7,192 nt of DNA from Escherichia coli. GTDB lineage: Bacteria; Pseudomonadota; Gammaproteobacteria; Enterobacterales; Enterobacteriaceae. The stretch is from the NCBI RefSeq assembly GCF_003334355.1, contig NZ_QOWP01000064.1; one strand, given 5' to 3'. Position 1 is the first letter of the stretch. Each line of letters opens with the position of its first letter. The position numbers were made by a program, and so were the translations under genes. The notes beneath the pieces are model-generated. The model was not told where the DNA came from. It worked only from the letters and a program-made list of their open reading frames with translations, and did not search any database. This document shows, in pieces, positions 1 through 7,192 of the stretch.

Positions 1-972
1 ATCTTCTGCGACGAACATGGTCGCGTGCGGGTGAAGTTCAACTGGGACCGTTATAACCCGGCAGACCAAGACAGTTCATGCTGGATCCGTGTGGCACAGG
101 CGTGGGCAGGCACCGGCTTTGGCAACCTGGCGATACCGCGAGTGGGTCAGGAGGTGATTGTGGACTTCCTCAACGGCGACCCGGACCAGCCGATTATTAT
201 GGGGCGTACCTACCACCATGAAAACCGCACACCCGGCAGCCTGCCGGGGACGAAGACGCAGATGACGATCCGCTCGAAAACCTATAAGGGCAGCGGGTTT
301 AATGAACTGAAGTTTGACGATGCGACAGGGAAAGAACAGGTCTACATCCACGCGCAGAAGAACATGAACACCGAGGTGCTGAATAACCGCACCACTGATG
401 TGATAAACAACCATGCTGAAACCATTGGCAACAATCAGATGATTGCGGTTACCAACAATCAGATACAGACGGTGGGTGTTAACCAGATAGAGACGGTGGG
501 CAGTAACCAGATAATTAAAGTGGGTTCTGTTCAGGTGGAAACGATTGGACTTGTTCGTGCGCTGACCGTGGGCGTGGCGTACCAGACGACGGTAGGTGGC
601 ATTATGAACACTTCGGTGGCTCTGATGCAGTCCTCGCAGATCGGTTTGCATAAATCGTTGAGGGTCGGGCTGGGTTATGACGTCAAAGTCGGAAATAACG
701 TTACCTTCACCGTTGGTAAAACGAAAAAGGATGATACCGGGCAGACCGCGATTTACTCCGCCGGTGAGCATCTGGAGCTCTGCTGTGGTAAGGCAAGGCT
801 GGTGCTGACGAAGGACGGACAAATTTTTCTCAACGGCACAAAAATTCATTTGCAGGGTAAGGAGCAGGTTAATGGTGACTCACTGTTGATTAACTGGAAC
901 TGTGCAGCCTCGAAATCCCCACCGAAGACCCCTGATGAAAAGCAGGATACGCCGGATATGAGAGAGTACTGA
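1..972 (+). CDS. vgrG: VgrG (T6SS spike) C-terminal portion; 5' end lies outside the window
   Basis: Frame 1 is open from nt 1 (IFCDEHGRVRVKFNWDRYNPADQDSSCWIRVAQAWAGTGFG...) to TGA at 970-972. The FCDEHGRV.KF.WDR block followed by NQIxTVGx octapeptide repeats is the VgrG gp27/gp5-like region as I recall it. The ORF track start at 25 (GTG) is internal. Confidence 0.9.
   Translation: MFCDEHGRVRVKFNWDRYNPADQDSSCWIRVAQAWAGTGFGNLAIPRVGQEVIVDFLNGDPDQPIIMGRTYHHENRTPGSLPGTKTQMTIRSKTYKGSGFNELKFDDATGKEQVYIHAQKNMNTEVLNNRTTDVINNHAETIGNNQMIAVTNNQIQTVGVNQIETVGSNQIIKVGSVQVETIGLVRALTVGVAYQTTVGGIMNTSVALMQSSQIGLHKSLRVGLGYDVKVGNNVTFTVGKTKKDDTGQTAIYSAGEHLELCCGKARLVLTKDGQIFLNGTKIHLQGKEQVNGDSLLINWNCAASKSPPKTPDEKQDTPDMREY
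433..528 (+). repeat. Four tandem 24-nt units inside vgrG encoding octapeptide beta-helix repeats (NQMIAVTN / NQIQTVGV / NQIETVGS / NQIIKVGS)
   Basis: Direct repeats visible in the sequence: aatcagatgattgcggttaccaac, aatcagatacagacggtgggtgtt, aaccagatagagacggtgggcagt, aaccagataattaaagtgggttct. All are in the vgrG frame. Confidence 0.85.
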
Positions 973-1031
973 TCCCGTACCTGTTCGGTATTCAGTAACA
1001 AACAAGCATTAAAAATAAACAGAAGAAGGAA

Positions 1032-4000
1032 TTGAATCATGAGCGGAAAACCAGCGGCGCGTCAGGGAATATGACTCAGTATGGCGGTCCCATTGTCCAG
1101 GGTTCGGCAGGTGTAAGAATTGGCGCGCCCACCGGCGTGGCGTGCTCGGTGTGTCCGGGCGGGATGACTTCGGGCAACCCGGTAAATCCGCTGCTGGGGG
1201 CGAAGGTGCTGCCCGGCGAGACGGACCTTGCGCTGCCCGGCCCGCTGCCGTTCATTCTCTCCCGCACCTACAGCAGCTACCGGACCAGGACACCCGCGCC
1301 GGTGGGAGTGTTTGGCCCCGGCTGGAAAGCGCCTTCTGATATCCGCTTACAGCTACGCGATGATGCACTGGTACTCAACGACAACGGCGGGCGGAGCATT
1401 CACTTTGAGCCGCTGCTGCCGGGGGAGGCGGTGTACAGCCGCAGCGAGTCAATGTGGCTGGTGCGCGGTGGTAAGGCAGCGCAGCCGGACGGCCACACGC
1501 TGGCGCGGCTGTGGGGGGCGCTGCCGCCGGATATCCGGTTAAGCCCGCATCTTTACCTGGCGACCAACAGCGCACAGGGGCCGTGGTGGATACTGGGGTG
1601 GTCAGAGCGGGTGCCGGGTGCTGAGGACGTACTGCCAGCGCCGCTGCCGCCGTACCGGGTGCTTACCGGGCTGGCAGACCGTTTCGGGCGGACGCTGACG
1701 TACCGGCGTGAGGCCGCAGGCGACCTGGCCGGGGAAATCACCGGCGTGACGGACGGTGCCGGGCGGGAGTTCCGTCTGGTGCTGACCACGCAGGCGCAGC
1801 GTGCGGAAGAGGCCCGCACCTCTTCGCTATCTTCTTCTGACAGTTCCCGCCCTCTCTCAGCCTCAGCGTTCCCCGACACACTGCCCGGTACCGAATACGG
1901 CCCCGACAGGGGTATCCGCCTTTCGGCGGTGTGGCTGATGCACGACCCGGCATACCCGGAGAGCCTGCCCGCTGCGCCACTGGTGCGGTACACGTATACG
2001 GAAGCCGGTGAACTGCTGGCGGTATATGACCGCAGCAATACGCAGGTGCGCGCTTTCACGTATGACGCGCAGCACCCGGGCCGGATGGTGGCGCACCGTT
2101 ACGCGGGAAAGCCGGAGATGCGCTACCGCTACGACGATACGGGGCGGGTGGTGGAGCAACTGAACCCGGCAGGGTTAAGCTACCGCTATCTTTATGAGCA
2201 GGACCGCATCACCGTCACCGACAGCCTGAACCGGCGTGAGGTGCTGCATACAGAAGGCGGGGCCGGGCTGAAACGGGTGGTGAAAAAAGAACTGGCGGAC
2301 GGCAGCGTCACGCACAGCGGGTATGACGCGGCAGGAAGGCTCACGGCGCAGACGGACGCGGCGGGACGGAGGACAGAGTACGGTCTGAATGTGGTGTCCG
2401 GCGATATCACGGACATCACCACACCGGACGGGCGGGAGACGAAATTTTACTATAACGACGGGAACCAGCTGACGGCGGTGGTGTACCCGGACGGGCTGGA
2501 GAGCCGCCGGGAATATGATGAACCGGGCAGGCTGGTATCGGAGACATCGCGCAGCGGGGAGACAGTACGCTACCGCTACGATGACGCGCACAGTGAGTTA
2601 CCGGCGACGACAACGGATGCGACGGGCAGCACCCGGCAGATGACGTGGAGCCGCTACGGGCAGTTGCTGGCGTTCACTGACTGCTCGGGCTACCAGACCC
2701 GCTATGAATACGACCGCTTCGGCCAGATGACGGCGGTTCACCGCGAGGAAGGTATCAGCCTTTACCGCCACTATGACAACCGTGGCCGGTTAACCTCGGT
2801 GAAAGACGCACAGGGCCGTGAAACGCGGTATGAATACAACGCCGCAGGCGACCTGACTGCCGTCATTACCCCGGACGGCAACCGGAGCGAGACACAGTAC
2901 GATGCGTGGGGAAAGGCGGTCAGCACCACGCAGGGCGGGCTGACGCGCAGTATGGAGTACGATGCTGCCGGACGTGTCATCAGTCTGACTAACGAGAACG
3001 GCAGCCACAGCGACTTCAGCTACGATGCGCTGGACCGGCTGGTACAGCAGGGCGGCTTTGACGGGCGGACGCAACGTTATCATTATGACCTGACCGGAAA
3101 ACTCACGCAGAGTGAAGATGAGGGGCTTATCACCCTCTGGCACTACGATGCGTCGGACCGCATCACGCACCGGACGGTGAACGGCGACCCGGCAGAGCAG
3201 TGGCAGTATGATGAGCACGGGTGGTTAACCACCCTCAGCCATACCAGTGAAGGCCACCGCGTGTCGGTCCACTACGGCTATGACGATAAAGGCCGCCTGA
3301 CCGGCGAACGCCAGACGGTGGAGAACCCGGAGACGGGGGAACTGCTGTGGCACCATGAGACCGGACATGCGTACAACGAACAGGGGCTGGCAAACCGCGT
3401 CACGCCGGACAGTCTGCCGCCGGTGGAGTGGCTGACCTACGGCAGCGGCTATCTTGCGGGCATGAAGCTGGGCGGGACGCCGCTGCTGGAGTTCACGCGC
3501 GACCGCCTGCACCGTGAGACGGTGCGCAGCTTCGGCAGCATGGCAGGCAGTAATGCCGCATATAAACTGACCAGCACATACACCCCCGCAGGCCAGTTAC
3601 AGAGCCAGCACCTGAACAGCCTGGTGTATGACCGTGACTACGGGTGGAATGACAACGGCGACCTGGTGCGCATCAGCGGCCCGCGACAGACGCGGGAATA
3701 CGGCTACAGCGCCACGGGCAGGCTGGAGAGTGTGCGCACCCTCGCACCAGACCTGGACATCCGCATCCCGTATGCCACGGACCCGGCGGGCAACCGGCTG
3801 CCGGACCCGGAGCTGCACCCGGACAGTACACTCACAGTGTGGCCGGATAACCGCATCGCGGAGGATGCGCACTATGTCTACCGCCACGATGAATACGGCA
3901 GGCTGACGGAGAAGACGGACCGCATCCCGGCGGGTGTGATACGGACGGACGACGAGCGGACCCACCACTACCACTACGACAGCCAGCACCGCCTGGTGTT

Positions 4001-5261
4001 CTACACGCGGATACAGCATGGCGAGCCACTGGTCGAGAGCCGCTACCTCTACGACCCGCTGGGACGGCGAATGGCAAAACGGGTCTGGCGGCGGGAGCGT
4101 GACCTGACGGGGTGGATGTCGCTGTCGCGTAAACCGGAGGTGACGTGGTATGGCTGGGACGGCGACCGGCTGACGACGGTGCAGACTGACACCACACGTA
4201 TCCAGACGGTATACGAGCCGGGAAGCTTCACGCCGCTCATCCGGGTCGAGACAGAGAACGGCGAGCGGGAAAAAGCGCAGCGGCGCAGCCTGGCAGAGAC
4301 GCTCCAGCAGGAAGGGAGTGAGAACGGCCACGGCGTGGTGTTCCCGGCTGAACTGGTGCGGCTGCTGGACAGGCTGGAGGAAGAAATCCGGGCAGACCGC
4401 GTGAGCAGTGAAAGCCGGGCGTGGCTTGCGCAGTGCGGGCTGACGGTGGAGCAACTGGCCAGACAGGTGGAGCCGGAATACACACCGGCGCGAAAAGTTC
4501 ATTTTTACCACTGCGACCACCGGGGCCTGCCGCTGGCGCTCATCAGCGAAGACGGCAATACGGCGTGGCGCGGGGAGTATGATGAATGGGGCAACCAGCT
4601 TAATGAGGAGAACCCGCATCACCTGCACCAGCCGTACCGTCTGCCAGGGCAGCAGCATGATGAGGAGTCGGGGCTGTACTATAACCGTCACCGGCACTAC
4701 GATCCGTTGCAGGGGCGGTATATCACCCCGGACCCGATTGGGTTGAGAGGTGGATGGAATATGTATCAGTATCCGTTGAATCCCATACAAGTGATAGACC
4801 CAATGGGGTTAGATGCGATTGAGAATATGACATCAGGTGGACTAATTTATGCCGTATCTGGTGTACCTGGATTGATTGCTGCAAACAGCATTACTAACAG
4901 TGCTTACCAGTTCGGTTATGATATGGATGCTATTGTTGGCGGAGCTCATAATGGGGCCGCCGATGCAATGAGACATTGTTACTTGATGTGTCGAATGACT
5001 AAGACATTTGGATCAACAATAGCTGACGTGATAGGTAAAAATCATGAGGCGGCAGGGGATAGACAAGGTCAGCCAGCTAAAGAAAGAATCATGGATCTTA
5101 AAAATAACACTGTCGGTATTGCTTGTGGCGATTTTTCTGCCAAATGTAGCGATGCATGTATTGAAAAATATAACACTGGGCAACTCTTCGGGTTAGATGG
5201 TATAAAAGCAGATAATCCAATAAAAGCAAAGCAAGGGAGTTCAGATGCTTCAAATTATTAG
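1032..5261 (+). CDS. Rhs-family polymorphic toxin: PAAR-like N-terminal domain, YD-repeat shell, RHS core ending in DPxGL, variable C-terminal toxin
   Basis: 1409-codon ORF ending at TAG 5259-5261. Many YD-type repeats ([86 protein letters not shown]). Core terminus is [32 protein letters not shown]. The start is ambiguous: in-frame candidates are TTG 1032 and ATG 1071, while the ATG with the best Shine-Dalgarno (1039) is in another frame. Confidence 0.9.
1039..1074 (+). other. Short [14 protein letters not shown]-stop carrying the PAAR motif, out of frame with the rhs body
   Basis: ATG 1039 preceded by GAAGGA (1025-1030) with an 8-nt spacer. It translates atg agc gga aaa cca gcg gcg cgt cag gga ata tga. 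Confidence 0.6.
4731..4811 (+). other. RHS core C-terminal boundary with two DPxGL motifs (DPIGL 4731-4745, DPMGL 4797-4811)
   Basis: Both motifs read directly in the rhs frame. The sequence turns from GC-rich to AT-rich across this segment. Confidence 0.8.
4812..5258 (+). other. Rhs variable C-terminal toxin domain, about 149 aa, family not recognised
   Basis: Sequence downstream of DPMGL: [151 protein letters not shown]-rich, with five Cys and several His. Confidence 0.7.
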
Positions 5262-5727
5262 AGGCAAACTTGTCATTTTTTTAATTACCCTTTGTTTATT
5301 TGTTGTTTACCTTGGGTTTGATAACAATTCAAATTCTGACATCGTATTTTATGGACATAAAACACCAAAGAGCGTTGAGATATATCTTTCTGAAAAAAAT
5401 ATTATTTATAAAATAATTAATGACCAAAAAATTAGTAGAGGGAATGGTCATTTTATAAGTGTAATGGTTAATAATTACAGGACGCACTGTGGAGTGGTTG
5501 ATATAAATCTTAATTTTTTCAATGATATTCTTTATAGCGTGCGATTAAAAAACATTAGTAAACTGGAGAATATGGAGTTCTGCGCTACAAAACAACGGGT
5601 GTATTTTAGTGATAAAAACAAGAAGGCTAGTTATAAAATAATTAATTATGGAGACTATTATGATGTTGATTATTATGATAACAATTTGAAAAATGAAGTT
5701 TTTGACTGGATTGGTAAATGGTCATAA
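5245..5727 (+). CDS. Putative cognate Rhs immunity protein (160 aa) with N-terminal hydrophobic signal/anchor segment
   Basis: ATG 5245 preceded by AGGGAG (5234-5239) with a 5-nt spacer. It overlaps the rhs stop by 17 nt and ends at TAA 5725-5727. Positively charged start (RGK) then hydrophobic [17 protein letters not shown]. Same AT-rich composition as the toxin domain and the usual position for an Rhs immunity gene. Confidence 0.7.
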
Positions 5728-5804
5728 TGAACAACACCAGAAAGAGAAAAATATAAAATACATACAGAAAGACATGAGAGCAAGGGACGGGGCAGGGCAA
5801 GATC

Positions 5805-5836
5805 ATGAAAATTGTGATGTAAATCACGATTTTCAT
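5805..5836. repeat. Imperfect inverted repeat: 14-nt arms (13 of 14 complementary; the odd position is a G-U wobble in RNA) around a 4-nt loop; possible weak terminator or protein-binding site
   Basis: atgaaaattgtgat-gtaa-atcacgattttcat, followed by ctttgcttt. It lies 78 nt downstream of the immunity stop. Confidence 0.5.
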
Positions 5837-5908
5837 CTTTGCTTTAACGCCTACAGGTGATCAAAATTTAACCTTTGGAATAACTAAAAAGATAAAAAAG
5901 GACGCCAG

Positions 5909-7031
5909 GTGAGTATTCAAAGTTTGCTTGATTATATTTCAGTGACCCCTGATATACGACAACAAGGAAAGGTTAAACATAAATTATCTGCTATTTTGTT
6001 TCTCACCGTATGTGCAGTAATTGCAGGTGCCGATGAGTGGCAGGAAATTGAAGATTTTGGACATGAAAGACTTGAATGGCTAAAGAAATATGGTGATTTT
6101 GATAATGGCATTCCGGTCGATGACACCATTGCACGCGTTGTGAGTAACATTGACAGTTTGGCCTTTGAAAAGATGTTTATTGAATGGATGCAGGAGTGCC
6201 ATGAAATCACTGATGGTGAAATTATAGCAATAGATGGAAAGACCATAAGAGGCTCCTTTGATAAGGGAAAAAGAAAAGGAGCAATCCATATGGTGAGTGC
6301 ATTCTCGAACGAAAATGGTGTTGTACTGGGGCAGGTGAAAACGGAAGCCAAAAGTAATGAGATTACAGCCATTCCAGAGTTGCTTAACCTACTGTATTTA
6401 AAGAAAAATTTGATAACCATTGATGCTATGGGCTGTCAGAAAGATATCGCTTCGAAGATCAAAGATAAAAAAGCAGATTATCTTCTGGCAGTAAAAGGCA
6501 ATCAGGGGAAATTACATCATGCATTCGAGGAAAAATTTCCTGTAAATGTGTTTTCTAATTATAAAGGCGATTCGTTTAGTACGCAGGAGATAAGTCATGG
6601 AAGAAAAGAAACACGTTTGCATATTGTCAGTAACGTAACGCCTGAACTTTTGTGATTTTGAATTCGAATGGAAGGGATTAAAAAAGCTTTGTGTAGCATT
6701 GTCATTCAGGCAGAAGAAAGAAGATAAATCAGCAGAAGGTGTAAGCATCCGATATTATATTTCATCAAAGGATATGGATGCTAAAGAATTTGCACATGCT
6801 ATCAGAGCGCACTGGCTGATCGAGCACAGTCTTCATTGGGTGTTAGATGTAAAAATGAATGAAGATGCCAGCCGGATAAGAAGAGGAAACGCAGCCTAAA
6901 TAATATCTGGAATAAAGAAGATGGCACTGAATTTATTAAGAGATTGCAAAGACATTAAGGGTGAAGAGGAAAAGAAAGAAGGCTGCGTTAAACACAGGGA
7001 AAGATCATCAGAAGTTCACTTTTTGTACTAA
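5909..7031 (+). pseudogene. ISAs1-family (H-repeat associated) transposase, disrupted by a frameshift near 6650-6653 and an in-frame TAA at 6897-6899
   Basis: Segment 5909..6655 carries the family hallmarks as I recall them (EITAIPELL, DAMGCQKDIA, AVKGNQG). The protein continues in another frame from about 6654 ([18 protein letters not shown]...[29 protein letters not shown]) to TAA 6897-6899. The same frame then stays open for 43 more codons (IISGIKKMALNLL...) to TAA 7029-7031. The three segments sum to about 371 codons, close to the family length as I recall it. Confidence 0.8.
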
Positions 7032-7126
7032 ATAATTCGCATTTTATGTTTAAAAATTGAGATATTCCTCATTACCTGAAGCTGTTTTTTATTGCTTATA
7101 CATGATCAAATACTCCTTACATAATT

Positions 7127-7138: not shown

Positions 7139-7192
7139 ATGGAACTTAAAAAATTGATGGAACATATTTCTATTATCCCCGATTACAGACAA
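7139..7192 (+). CDS. 5' end of a second ISAs1-family (H-repeat) transposase; continues beyond the window
   Basis: MELKKLMEHISIIPDYRQ matches the N-terminus of E. coli H-repeat proteins (YhhI-like) as I recall it, and a strong SD lies upstream. It shares only 8 of 18 residues with the N-terminus of the upstream pseudogene (MSIQSLLDYISVTPDIRQ). Confidence 0.75.
   Translation, partial: MELKKLMEHISIIPDYRQ

Follow-up and report, generated by a model that had tools for sequence, protein, structure and literature searches.

How does an Rhs effector whose gene directly follows a vgrG gene, with nothing between the two that could encode a chaperone or adaptor, come to be expressed and loaded onto VgrG? 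This question is raised by a stretch of 7,192 nucleotides (nt) of Escherichia coli DNA (NCBI RefSeq assembly GCF_003334355.1, contig NZ_QOWP01000064.1), which is referred to below in its entirety as the window, and in particular by the 66 nt at positions 973–1038 that separate the end of vgrG from the start of rhs. The window corresponds to the E. coli rhsE locus, in which vgrG, rhs, ydcD, (yncO), an ISAs1 pseudogene and ydcC lie in this order between yncH and pptA, and its DNA shares 99–99.9% identity with many complete genomes (99.7–99.9% with many E. coli genomes at rhsE). The explanation that we regard as likely has several parts: vgrG, rhs and ydcD would constitute an orphan type VI secretion module at this locus; region 973–1038 would be an ordinary short intra-operon spacer, with the ribosome-binding site (RBS) of rhs (AGAAGGA, 8 nt, ATG 1039) as its sole conserved content; the Rhs protein would belong to the short-N-terminus class typified by Tse5 of Pseudomonas aeruginosa and not to the canonical PAAR-Rhs proteins; and effectors of this class would be encoded directly after the VgrG that they use, without a gene for an Eag chaperone. 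Direct adjacency of vgrG and rhs is already known as the organisation of vgrG-linked short-N-terminus Rhs effectors, and the rhsE locus itself, including the adjacency of vgrG2 and rhsE, has been described before (PMC7216683).

The reading frame of vgrG (plus strand, frame 1) is open from the first base of the window and closes with ...DTPDMREY at the TGA codon 970–972, and the conserved start of rhs is ATG 1039. An initial annotation of this DNA had placed 66 nt and a Shine-Dalgarno sequence between these two points, and this delimitation is borne out by the RefSeq annotation of E. coli REL606, EP91B and PSS-12, where vgrG ends and rhs begins at the bases equivalent to 972 and 1039, respectively. 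K-12 rhsD, a gene without a vgrG, is likewise homologous from exactly ATG 1039 onwards. The G+C content of the spacer is 35%, compared with 52–64% in its flanks, and at 66 nt it is too short for any adaptor gene. A consensus scan of 973–1038 for promoters (−35 and −10 hexamers spaced by 16–18 nt, with a threshold of 9 matches out of 12) and for terminators (a G+C-rich hairpin followed by a run of T) identified no promoter-like and no terminator-like site. When the promoter scan was relaxed, the top pair of hexamers had 8 of 12 matches and ended at 1037, two bases ahead of the ATG, which is too late for rhs. The most stable local hairpin, at 950–990 (−10.4 kcal/mol), straddles the vgrG stop codon and has no run of T after it; the fold of 940–1080 is no more stable than those of shuffled sequences (z = 0.01), and an Rfam scan of the whole window returned zero matches. 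The absence of a terminator hairpin from the spacer, as stated earlier, is thus supported both by the consensus scan and by the folding analysis.

Two open reading frames (ORFs) on the minus strand cross the spacer (Table 1). The longer of these, 846..1040, had been described as apparently spurious and as the only ORF there. The former part of this description agrees with our results, as this ORF has no NCBIfam match, is unannotated in the three RefSeq loci indicated above, and overlies a spacer that is not conserved between paralogues; hence, it is judged spurious. The latter part does not hold, since the ORF at 880..1005 also spans the spacer. The length of the antisense ORF across relatives was considered as a test of the conservation of 846..1040 and dropped, because chance long ORFs in the G+C-rich flanks dominate such a comparison.

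The junction is present in a large part of the species. Using a junction probe of 401 nt, with coverage of at least 80%, it was detected in approximately 2,890 of 5,426 complete E. coli genomes, and the matched stretch is 401–403 nt long in the sampled near-identical matches (at least 96.5% identity), so that the length of the spacer is nearly constant. In enterohaemorrhagic E. coli (EHEC) EDL933, rhsE with its orphan vgrG ('vgrG2', z2262) occupies the same locus (yncH...pptA), with the order vgrG, rhs, ydcD, ISAs1 and a spacer of 66–67 nt. A paralogous junction is found in the core cluster of type VI secretion system 2 (T6SS-2) of E. coli, where tssM...tssB are followed by hcp, vgrG, rhs, an immunity gene and ISAs1, and then by yafV (the genes 'hcp3-vgrG3-paar-paarI' of EHEC). 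The VgrG proteins of the two loci are 90–91% identical and the first 140 residues of the Rhs proteins 82–85% identical, and the T6SS-2 junction is also direct, with a gap of 75 nt and an identical RBS block. However, the T6SS-2 pair sits beside tssB–M in the core cluster, whereas the pair in the window lies on an orphan island, and the paralogues differ in the first ~50 nt of the spacer, in the last ~40 residues of VgrG and in Rhs residues 14–18. The last ~20 nt of the spacer, AGAAGGAATTGAWTCATG, which form the RBS block, are identical in the orphan and T6SS-2 spacers, while the remaining spacer has diverged almost wholly, and this pattern fits a spacer whose sole function is to carry the RBS. 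For the 5' untranslated region of the EHEC vgrG3-'paar' pair, no hairpins were reported, and expression with this region was (PMC13141884).

Some further features of the junction may be indicated here. The RBS block ACAGAAGGA, followed by 8 nt and the ATG (1019–1047 in the window), is kept across genera, an AAGGA block recurring ~8 nt before the ATG, and a second GGA is present at 1045–1047. In the paralogous EHEC gene, the AGGA that precedes the ATG by 8 nt has been considered a possible CsrA site (PMC13141884); for the RBS of rhs, a CsrA site would be a resemblance at the level of the motif only. The divergence between the orphan and T6SS-2 VgrG proteins is greatest in their last ~35 residues (~45% identity), with the tail P-D-M-R-(E/Q)-(Y/F) kept (949–969), and Rhs residues 14–18 read QYGGP in one paralogue and RKGLD in the other. 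To judge from the sequences, these differences in the VgrG tail and in Rhs residues 14–18 may reflect cognate pairing.

The same arrangement extends well beyond E. coli. A scan of one genome per species for relatives of the first 137 Rhs residues yielded 64 loci, from Citrobacter, Trabulsiella, Buttiauxella, Rahnella, Serratia, Mixta, Paracidovorax, Azoarcus, a metagenome-assembled genome of Chromatiales, and others. A vgrG gene on the same strand is present upstream in 25 of these loci, and in all 25 it adjoins rhs directly, with a gap of 2–177 nt (median 68) and no gene between the two in any of them. The gap of 177 nt, which is from Mixta, is really ~20 nt, because rhs starts earlier there. 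The earlier claim that no DUF4123, DUF1795 or DUF2169 adaptor gene lies between vgrG and rhs therefore holds for the 66-nt spacer and for all 25 of these vgrG-linked relatives, and the direct arrangement is conserved across paralogues and genera beyond what is expected by chance. As the shortest gaps among the relatives (2, 16 and 19 nt) leave a promoter no space, they provide the best indirect argument for co-transcription, and together with the signal-free spacer they suggest that vgrG and rhs may be transcribed as one unit.

In 31 other loci, for which at least 3 kb of upstream sequence was available, no vgrG was found. They are similar to the 'neighbourless' rhs genes (K-12 rhsA–D; the Rhs-Nb group of Ma et al. 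2017), which have the same RHS core and 47-residue N-terminus as the protein of the window, but where the upstream position is occupied by housekeeping genes (uhpT, aegA, cof, sanA) and not by vgrG. The upstream ORFs of ten vgrG-less loci were scanned as candidates for hidden adaptors or diverged VgrG proteins and were rejected in six cases, five of them being housekeeping genes (the four just named and an aminopeptidase gene) and one encoding a pentapeptide-repeat protein; the other four had no NCBIfam match. In Paracidovorax citrulli, a short-N-terminus rhs is preceded at a distance of 24 nt by an ORF of 689 amino acids (locus L059 in our numbering, 3907–5976) that has no NCBIfam match, and a tblastn search with E. 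coli VgrG found nothing in the region of this upstream ORF.

The protein encoded after vgrG had been labelled a PAAR-Rhs, and this label requires revision. The match of the intact protein to the Pfam PAAR_motif (PF05488) is not significant (best i-E 0.14, 12.9 bits, residues 2–20 only), and it contains one repeat, not three: with a 47-residue query (E 0.008), residues 2–29 are the only ones to align with the PAAR structures 4JIV, 4JIW and SalCis10, and in every case they match the last repeat of the three that these proteins have. A better description is that of an Rhs protein with a single-repeat, Tse5-type PAAR-like N-terminus. Of the 63 related loci, 62 have the single repeat, their hosts ranging from Enterobacterales to Acidovorax, Azoarcus and Chromatiales; the N-terminus is conserved across the genera sampled, and the repeat is accompanied by a conserved CxxC element (1042–1181 in the window). 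The homologue from Mixta tenebrionis (locus L044, 2214–2500) has three tandem repeats at the same position, and these repeats match the PAAR structures from end to end (E 5e-10 to 2e-6), which argues that the short N-terminus corresponds to one third of a PAAR domain. The Pro-Ala-Ala-Arg signature is encoded in the window (KPAARQG, 1048–1068), the frame breaking right after it. No transmembrane segment was detected in the first 140 residues of Rhs (maximal 19-residue Kyte-Doolittle mean of 0.87), and at the position of the prePAAR motif (AARxxDxxxH) the intact protein reads AARQGDMTQY, with Tyr in place of His; some of the Azoarcus relatives have His.

A close parallel among characterised effectors is Tse5 (PMC10684867, PMC9637101). 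According to the papers on this protein, the gene order in P. aeruginosa is VgrG1c (PA2685), Tse5 (PA2684) and Tsi5 (PA2683); cleavage of Tse5 takes place between K47 and P48 (PMC10684867); the fragment Tse5-NT (5 kDa, residues 1–47) is PAAR-like and required for secretion through VgrG1c (PMC10684867, PMC9637101); and residues 48–124 form the N-terminal plug (DUF6531; PMC10684867). Wood et al. referred to the Tse5 element as a 'cryptic PAAR-like domain' (PMC7376260), and residues 1–29 are disordered in the cryo-EM map of Tse5. In VgrG1c/VgrG4-Tse5-Tsi5, as in the E. coli module, the Rhs gene adjoins a VgrG gene, and the position directly downstream is taken by the immunity gene in the former and by ydcD, presumed to be an immunity gene, in the latter. 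In both Tse5 and the E. coli Rhs, the first 47 residues form an N-terminal fragment, after which come P48-V-N-P and the DUF6531 plug; neither has an N-terminal transmembrane domain, and Rhs residues 48–137 align with chain B of Tse5 from its first residue, P48 (E 4e-12). However, the cleavage-site Pro is preceded by N47 in the E. coli protein and by K47 in Tse5; the toxin tip is a DUF6973 domain in the former and a pore former in the latter; and Tse5-NT reportedly has no Pro-Ala-Ala-Arg signature (PMC9637101), KPAARxGD being retained in the E. coli family. By analogy with this system, and from the gene order, the N-terminal fragment of Rhs would dock on the tip of VgrG; direct loading of this kind, as well as co-transcription, can reasonably be inferred.

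The lack of an Eag gene is consistent with this class assignment. Eag (DUF1795) chaperones bind the N-terminal transmembrane domains of prePAAR effectors (PMC7773334), and no Eag gene would be present here because this Rhs has no hydrophobic N-terminal (transmembrane) domain to shield. RefSeq annotation and scans with NCBIfam and Pfam recognised no DUF1795, DUF4123 or DUF2169 gene in the window or in the rhsE island, and none was found in the complete T6SS-2 cluster, based upon RefSeq product names and scans of its unnamed ORFs (one of them by NCBIfam only). In the T6SS-2 cluster of E. coli RM13745 (locus L072, 42 kb), frames with a PAAR motif are limited to the Rhs N-terminus and a short remnant of an rhs start, and no stand-alone PAAR is annotated; the remnant is located at 40893, just before an ISAs1 copy.

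Both types of arrangement occur within one genome, that of E. coli O157:H7 TW14359, which contains the direct vgrG-rhsE junction and also the order vgrG1, a DcrB-related (Eag-type) gene, rhsF. At the N-terminus of its RhsF lie AARLGDEIQH, PAAR repeats and long hydrophobic stretches, in keeping with the published description of prePAAR effectors (PMC7773334). The contrast between Eag and non-Eag loci has likewise been described for EDL933 (PMC7216683), and Ma et al. 2017 described it too, according to the summary in PMC6730261. The Eag-dependent class I prePAAR Rhs effectors (EHEC vgrG1-eagR-rhsF; those of Serratia, Salmonella and Enterobacter; RhsA of Pseudomonas protegens; Tre23 of Photorhabdus) are likewise toxins linked to vgrG, whose plug is of the DUF6531 type and whose N-terminus is related to PAAR. 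In their case, however, vgrG and rhs are separated by a DUF1795 gene, and the N-terminus, at ~300 residues, combines AARxxDxxxH with transmembrane helices and a complete PAAR domain (PMC7773334); the DUF1795 gene, the transmembrane helices and the complete PAAR domain are absent from the window. A practical rule follows from these comparisons: no Eag gene goes with a short N-terminus without a transmembrane segment, and an Eag gene goes with an N-terminus of the prePAAR-transmembrane-PAAR type. Acidovorax RhsB/EagT2 was considered as a contradiction of this rule and set aside, as by its description (N-terminal PAAR domain, upstream DUF1795 chaperone) it belongs to a different class.

Within the window itself, the rhs frame is broken. 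Alignment to REL606 revealed that the G of codon 11 (GAT) is missing; all other relatives keep this G, and the window alone among the E. coli rhsE loci compared has the deletion. ATG 1039 is the ancestral, true start of rhs and is unproductive in the window: its frame reads through KPAARQG and then stops at 1072–1074. The earlier assignment of the rhs start to this codon is therefore correct with regard to the conserved start, although in this DNA it opens an ORF of only 11 codons, and the emphasis that was placed on the integrity of the PAAR motif proves to be justified, the deletion being located in the codon after KPAARQG. As the TGA at 1072–1074 overlaps the ATG at 1071–1073, which encodes Met12 of the intact protein, the resulting AUGA stop/start overlap makes a restart at Met12 by termination-reinitiation conceivable. 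At best, such a restart could yield a product without residues 1–11 and thereby without the KPAARQGD motif of PAAR type. A 41-mer across the deletion has no match in the 5,426 complete E. coli genomes, and this points to either a private, recent mutation or a sequencing or assembly error. The vgrG part, ydcD and the remaining 1,397 codons of rhs are intact. With regard to annotation, these results fix ATG 1039 as the true start of rhs and the window as the rhsE locus; the long ORF that ORF finders open at TTG 1032 is artefactual, a consequence of the frameshift, and the antisense ORF is spurious.

Several points weigh against the proposed explanation, and they are best considered together with the alternatives to which they lend weight. 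The case for co-transcription is drawn from absent signals and from the short spacers of relatives, and rhs might instead be driven by its own promoter, located in or just before the spacer and independent of vgrG. About half of the relatives, viz. the 31 loci without a nearby vgrG, show that adjacency is not obligatory for the family, and these rhs genes must have their own promoters; moreover, hcp3 and vgrG3 of the EHEC T6SS-2 are separate units despite their adjacency (PMC13141884). Because scans for consensus sites are coarse tools and the spacer is rich in A+T, with relaxed matches of 8/12, a weak or non-sigma-70 promoter is still conceivable. Nevertheless, no match in the spacer reaches 9/12, the best relaxed pair ends too close to the ATG, the spacers of 2–19 nt in relatives leave no space for a promoter, and conservation between the paralogues is confined to the RBS block; an independent promoter thus appears improbable. 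It is also quite unlikely that a chaperone, an adaptor or a stand-alone PAAR protein encoded elsewhere in the genome is needed to load Rhs, in which case the junction would say little. Such a gene elsewhere in the source genome is conceivable, as one PAAR repeat cannot build a whole cone and small PAAR genes have been overlooked before, e.g., that of P. aeruginosa PAAR5 (PMC7376260), but neither the island nor the complete T6SS-2 cluster contains a helper of this kind, the Rhs N-terminus lacks the transmembrane segment that Eag chaperones bind (PMC7773334), and no chaperone for Tse5 is mentioned in the available sections of PMC10684867 and PMC9637101.

A different possibility, which is compatible with the proposed explanation for the intact ancestor and which we consider real although doubtful, is that the module of the source genome is a decaying remnant whose junction has no function. 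In its favour, rhs is frameshifted, the adjacent ISAs1 copies are pseudogenes, and REL606 keeps the island even though its usual T6SS-2 site, between aspV and yafV, is empty of the core cluster. K-12 retains only a truncated rhsE. The intact state of the rest of the module speaks against decay; the deletion, found in none of the complete genomes, must be recent or a sequencing error, and the AUGA overlap could permit a restart. As a separate observation, the island of REL606 consists of an intact orphan vgrG-rhs-ydcD, and its aspV-yafV site (locus L071, 215–265 kb) contains only IS1, ISAs1 and small ORFs.

The mode of docking in the proposed loading of Rhs onto its own VgrG also faces two difficulties. 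A phmmer comparison of the E. coli Rhs N-terminus with Tse5-NT detected no similarity, the two sharing only their length, their position and the PVNP that follows, and a lone PAAR repeat cannot form a three-fold cone by itself. That the single-repeat N-terminus, if it is truly the spike tip, must cap VgrG in a manner unlike the three-repeat cone is a proposal that we make with little confidence; three Rhs N-termini per VgrG trimer, or one strand-pair docking asymmetrically, are two possibilities for such an arrangement. In that case, the direct junction of vgrG and rhs would mark, at the level of the genes, a minimal mode of loading without a chaperone.

Table 1. Positions of the vgrG-rhs junction and of the associated features in the window.
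Feature	Position	Strand	Remarks
vgrG, 3' part	1..972	+	Last 323 codons and stop; gp5-like OB-fold, beta-helix, C-terminal tail ending PDMREY
Antisense ORF, 64 amino acids	846..1040	-	Judged spurious
Second antisense ORF, 41 amino acids	880..1005	-	Also spans the spacer; unannotated in RefSeq
vgrG-rhs spacer	973..1038	+	66 nt, 35% G+C; first ~45 nt variable, last ~20 nt conserved
Shine-Dalgarno sequence GAAGGA	1025..1030	+	8 nt before ATG 1039
ORF from ATG 1039	1039..1074	+	11 codons; stop TGA 1072-1074
Single PAAR-like repeat	1042..1124	+	Residues 2-29 of the intact protein; interrupted by the frameshift
Site of 1-nt deletion	1066..1070	+	G of codon 11 (GAT) missing; breaks the rhs frame
rhs body, shifted frame	1071..5261	+	Met12 of the intact protein to stop; RHS core to ~4811, then low-G+C C-terminal tip
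DUF6531, N-terminal plug of the Rhs shell	1173..1406	+	Pfam E 6e-19; residues 46-123 of the intact protein
Codons N47-P48	1176..1181	+	Equivalent to the Tse5 K47|P48 self-cleavage site; end of the 47-residue N-terminal fragment
ydcD, presumed immunity gene	5245..5727	+	27.5% G+C; overlaps the end of rhs by 17 nt (5245-5261)
Terminator-like hairpin 3' of ydcD	5805..5836	+	14-bp stem with only 3 G-C pairs, weak; AT-rich

The identity of the genes in the module is supported by profile matches of their intact orthologues. The full-length VgrG of REL606 matches the Pfam families Phage_GPD, Phage_base_V and Gp5_trimer_C, as well as NCBIfam TIGR03361 (615 bits), and the intact Rhs orthologue, with which the translation of the window is collinear, matches the NCBIfam RHS_core family NF041261 (2777 bits, cut-off 2000), TIGR01643 and TIGR03696. 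The tip of Rhs matches DUF6973 at ~4887–5129, and a sharp break in composition is seen in 4800–5727, the G+C content falling from 64% in the rhs core to 41% in the tip and 27.5% in ydcD. The latter gene is present in the RefSeq annotation and matches YdcD_fam of NCBIfam (215 bits); it has no Pfam domain and hence belongs to no adaptor family. Two promoter-like sites, at 4894–4922 and 5060–5089, are located inside the rhs tip upstream of ydcD, and for the paralogous 'paar' gene, an internal start within its 3' end has been reported (PMC13141884). The hairpin downstream of ydcD is a possible end of the vgrG-rhs-ydcD transcript; it overlaps a small minus-strand gene, 5642–5836, which is annotated as yncO in RefSeq.

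Of the remaining features, region 5909–7035 contains a transposase gene of the ISAs1 family (H-repeat) with a frameshift and an internal stop, and a second ISAs1 copy (ydcC) begins at ATG 7140 (7140–7192). The window also differs from the rhsE locus of REL606 by a cluster of substitutions in the rhs core, where most of the 67 differences from that strain are concentrated in 2984–3650; from its sequence, this cluster resembles a tract of gene conversion by another rhs copy.

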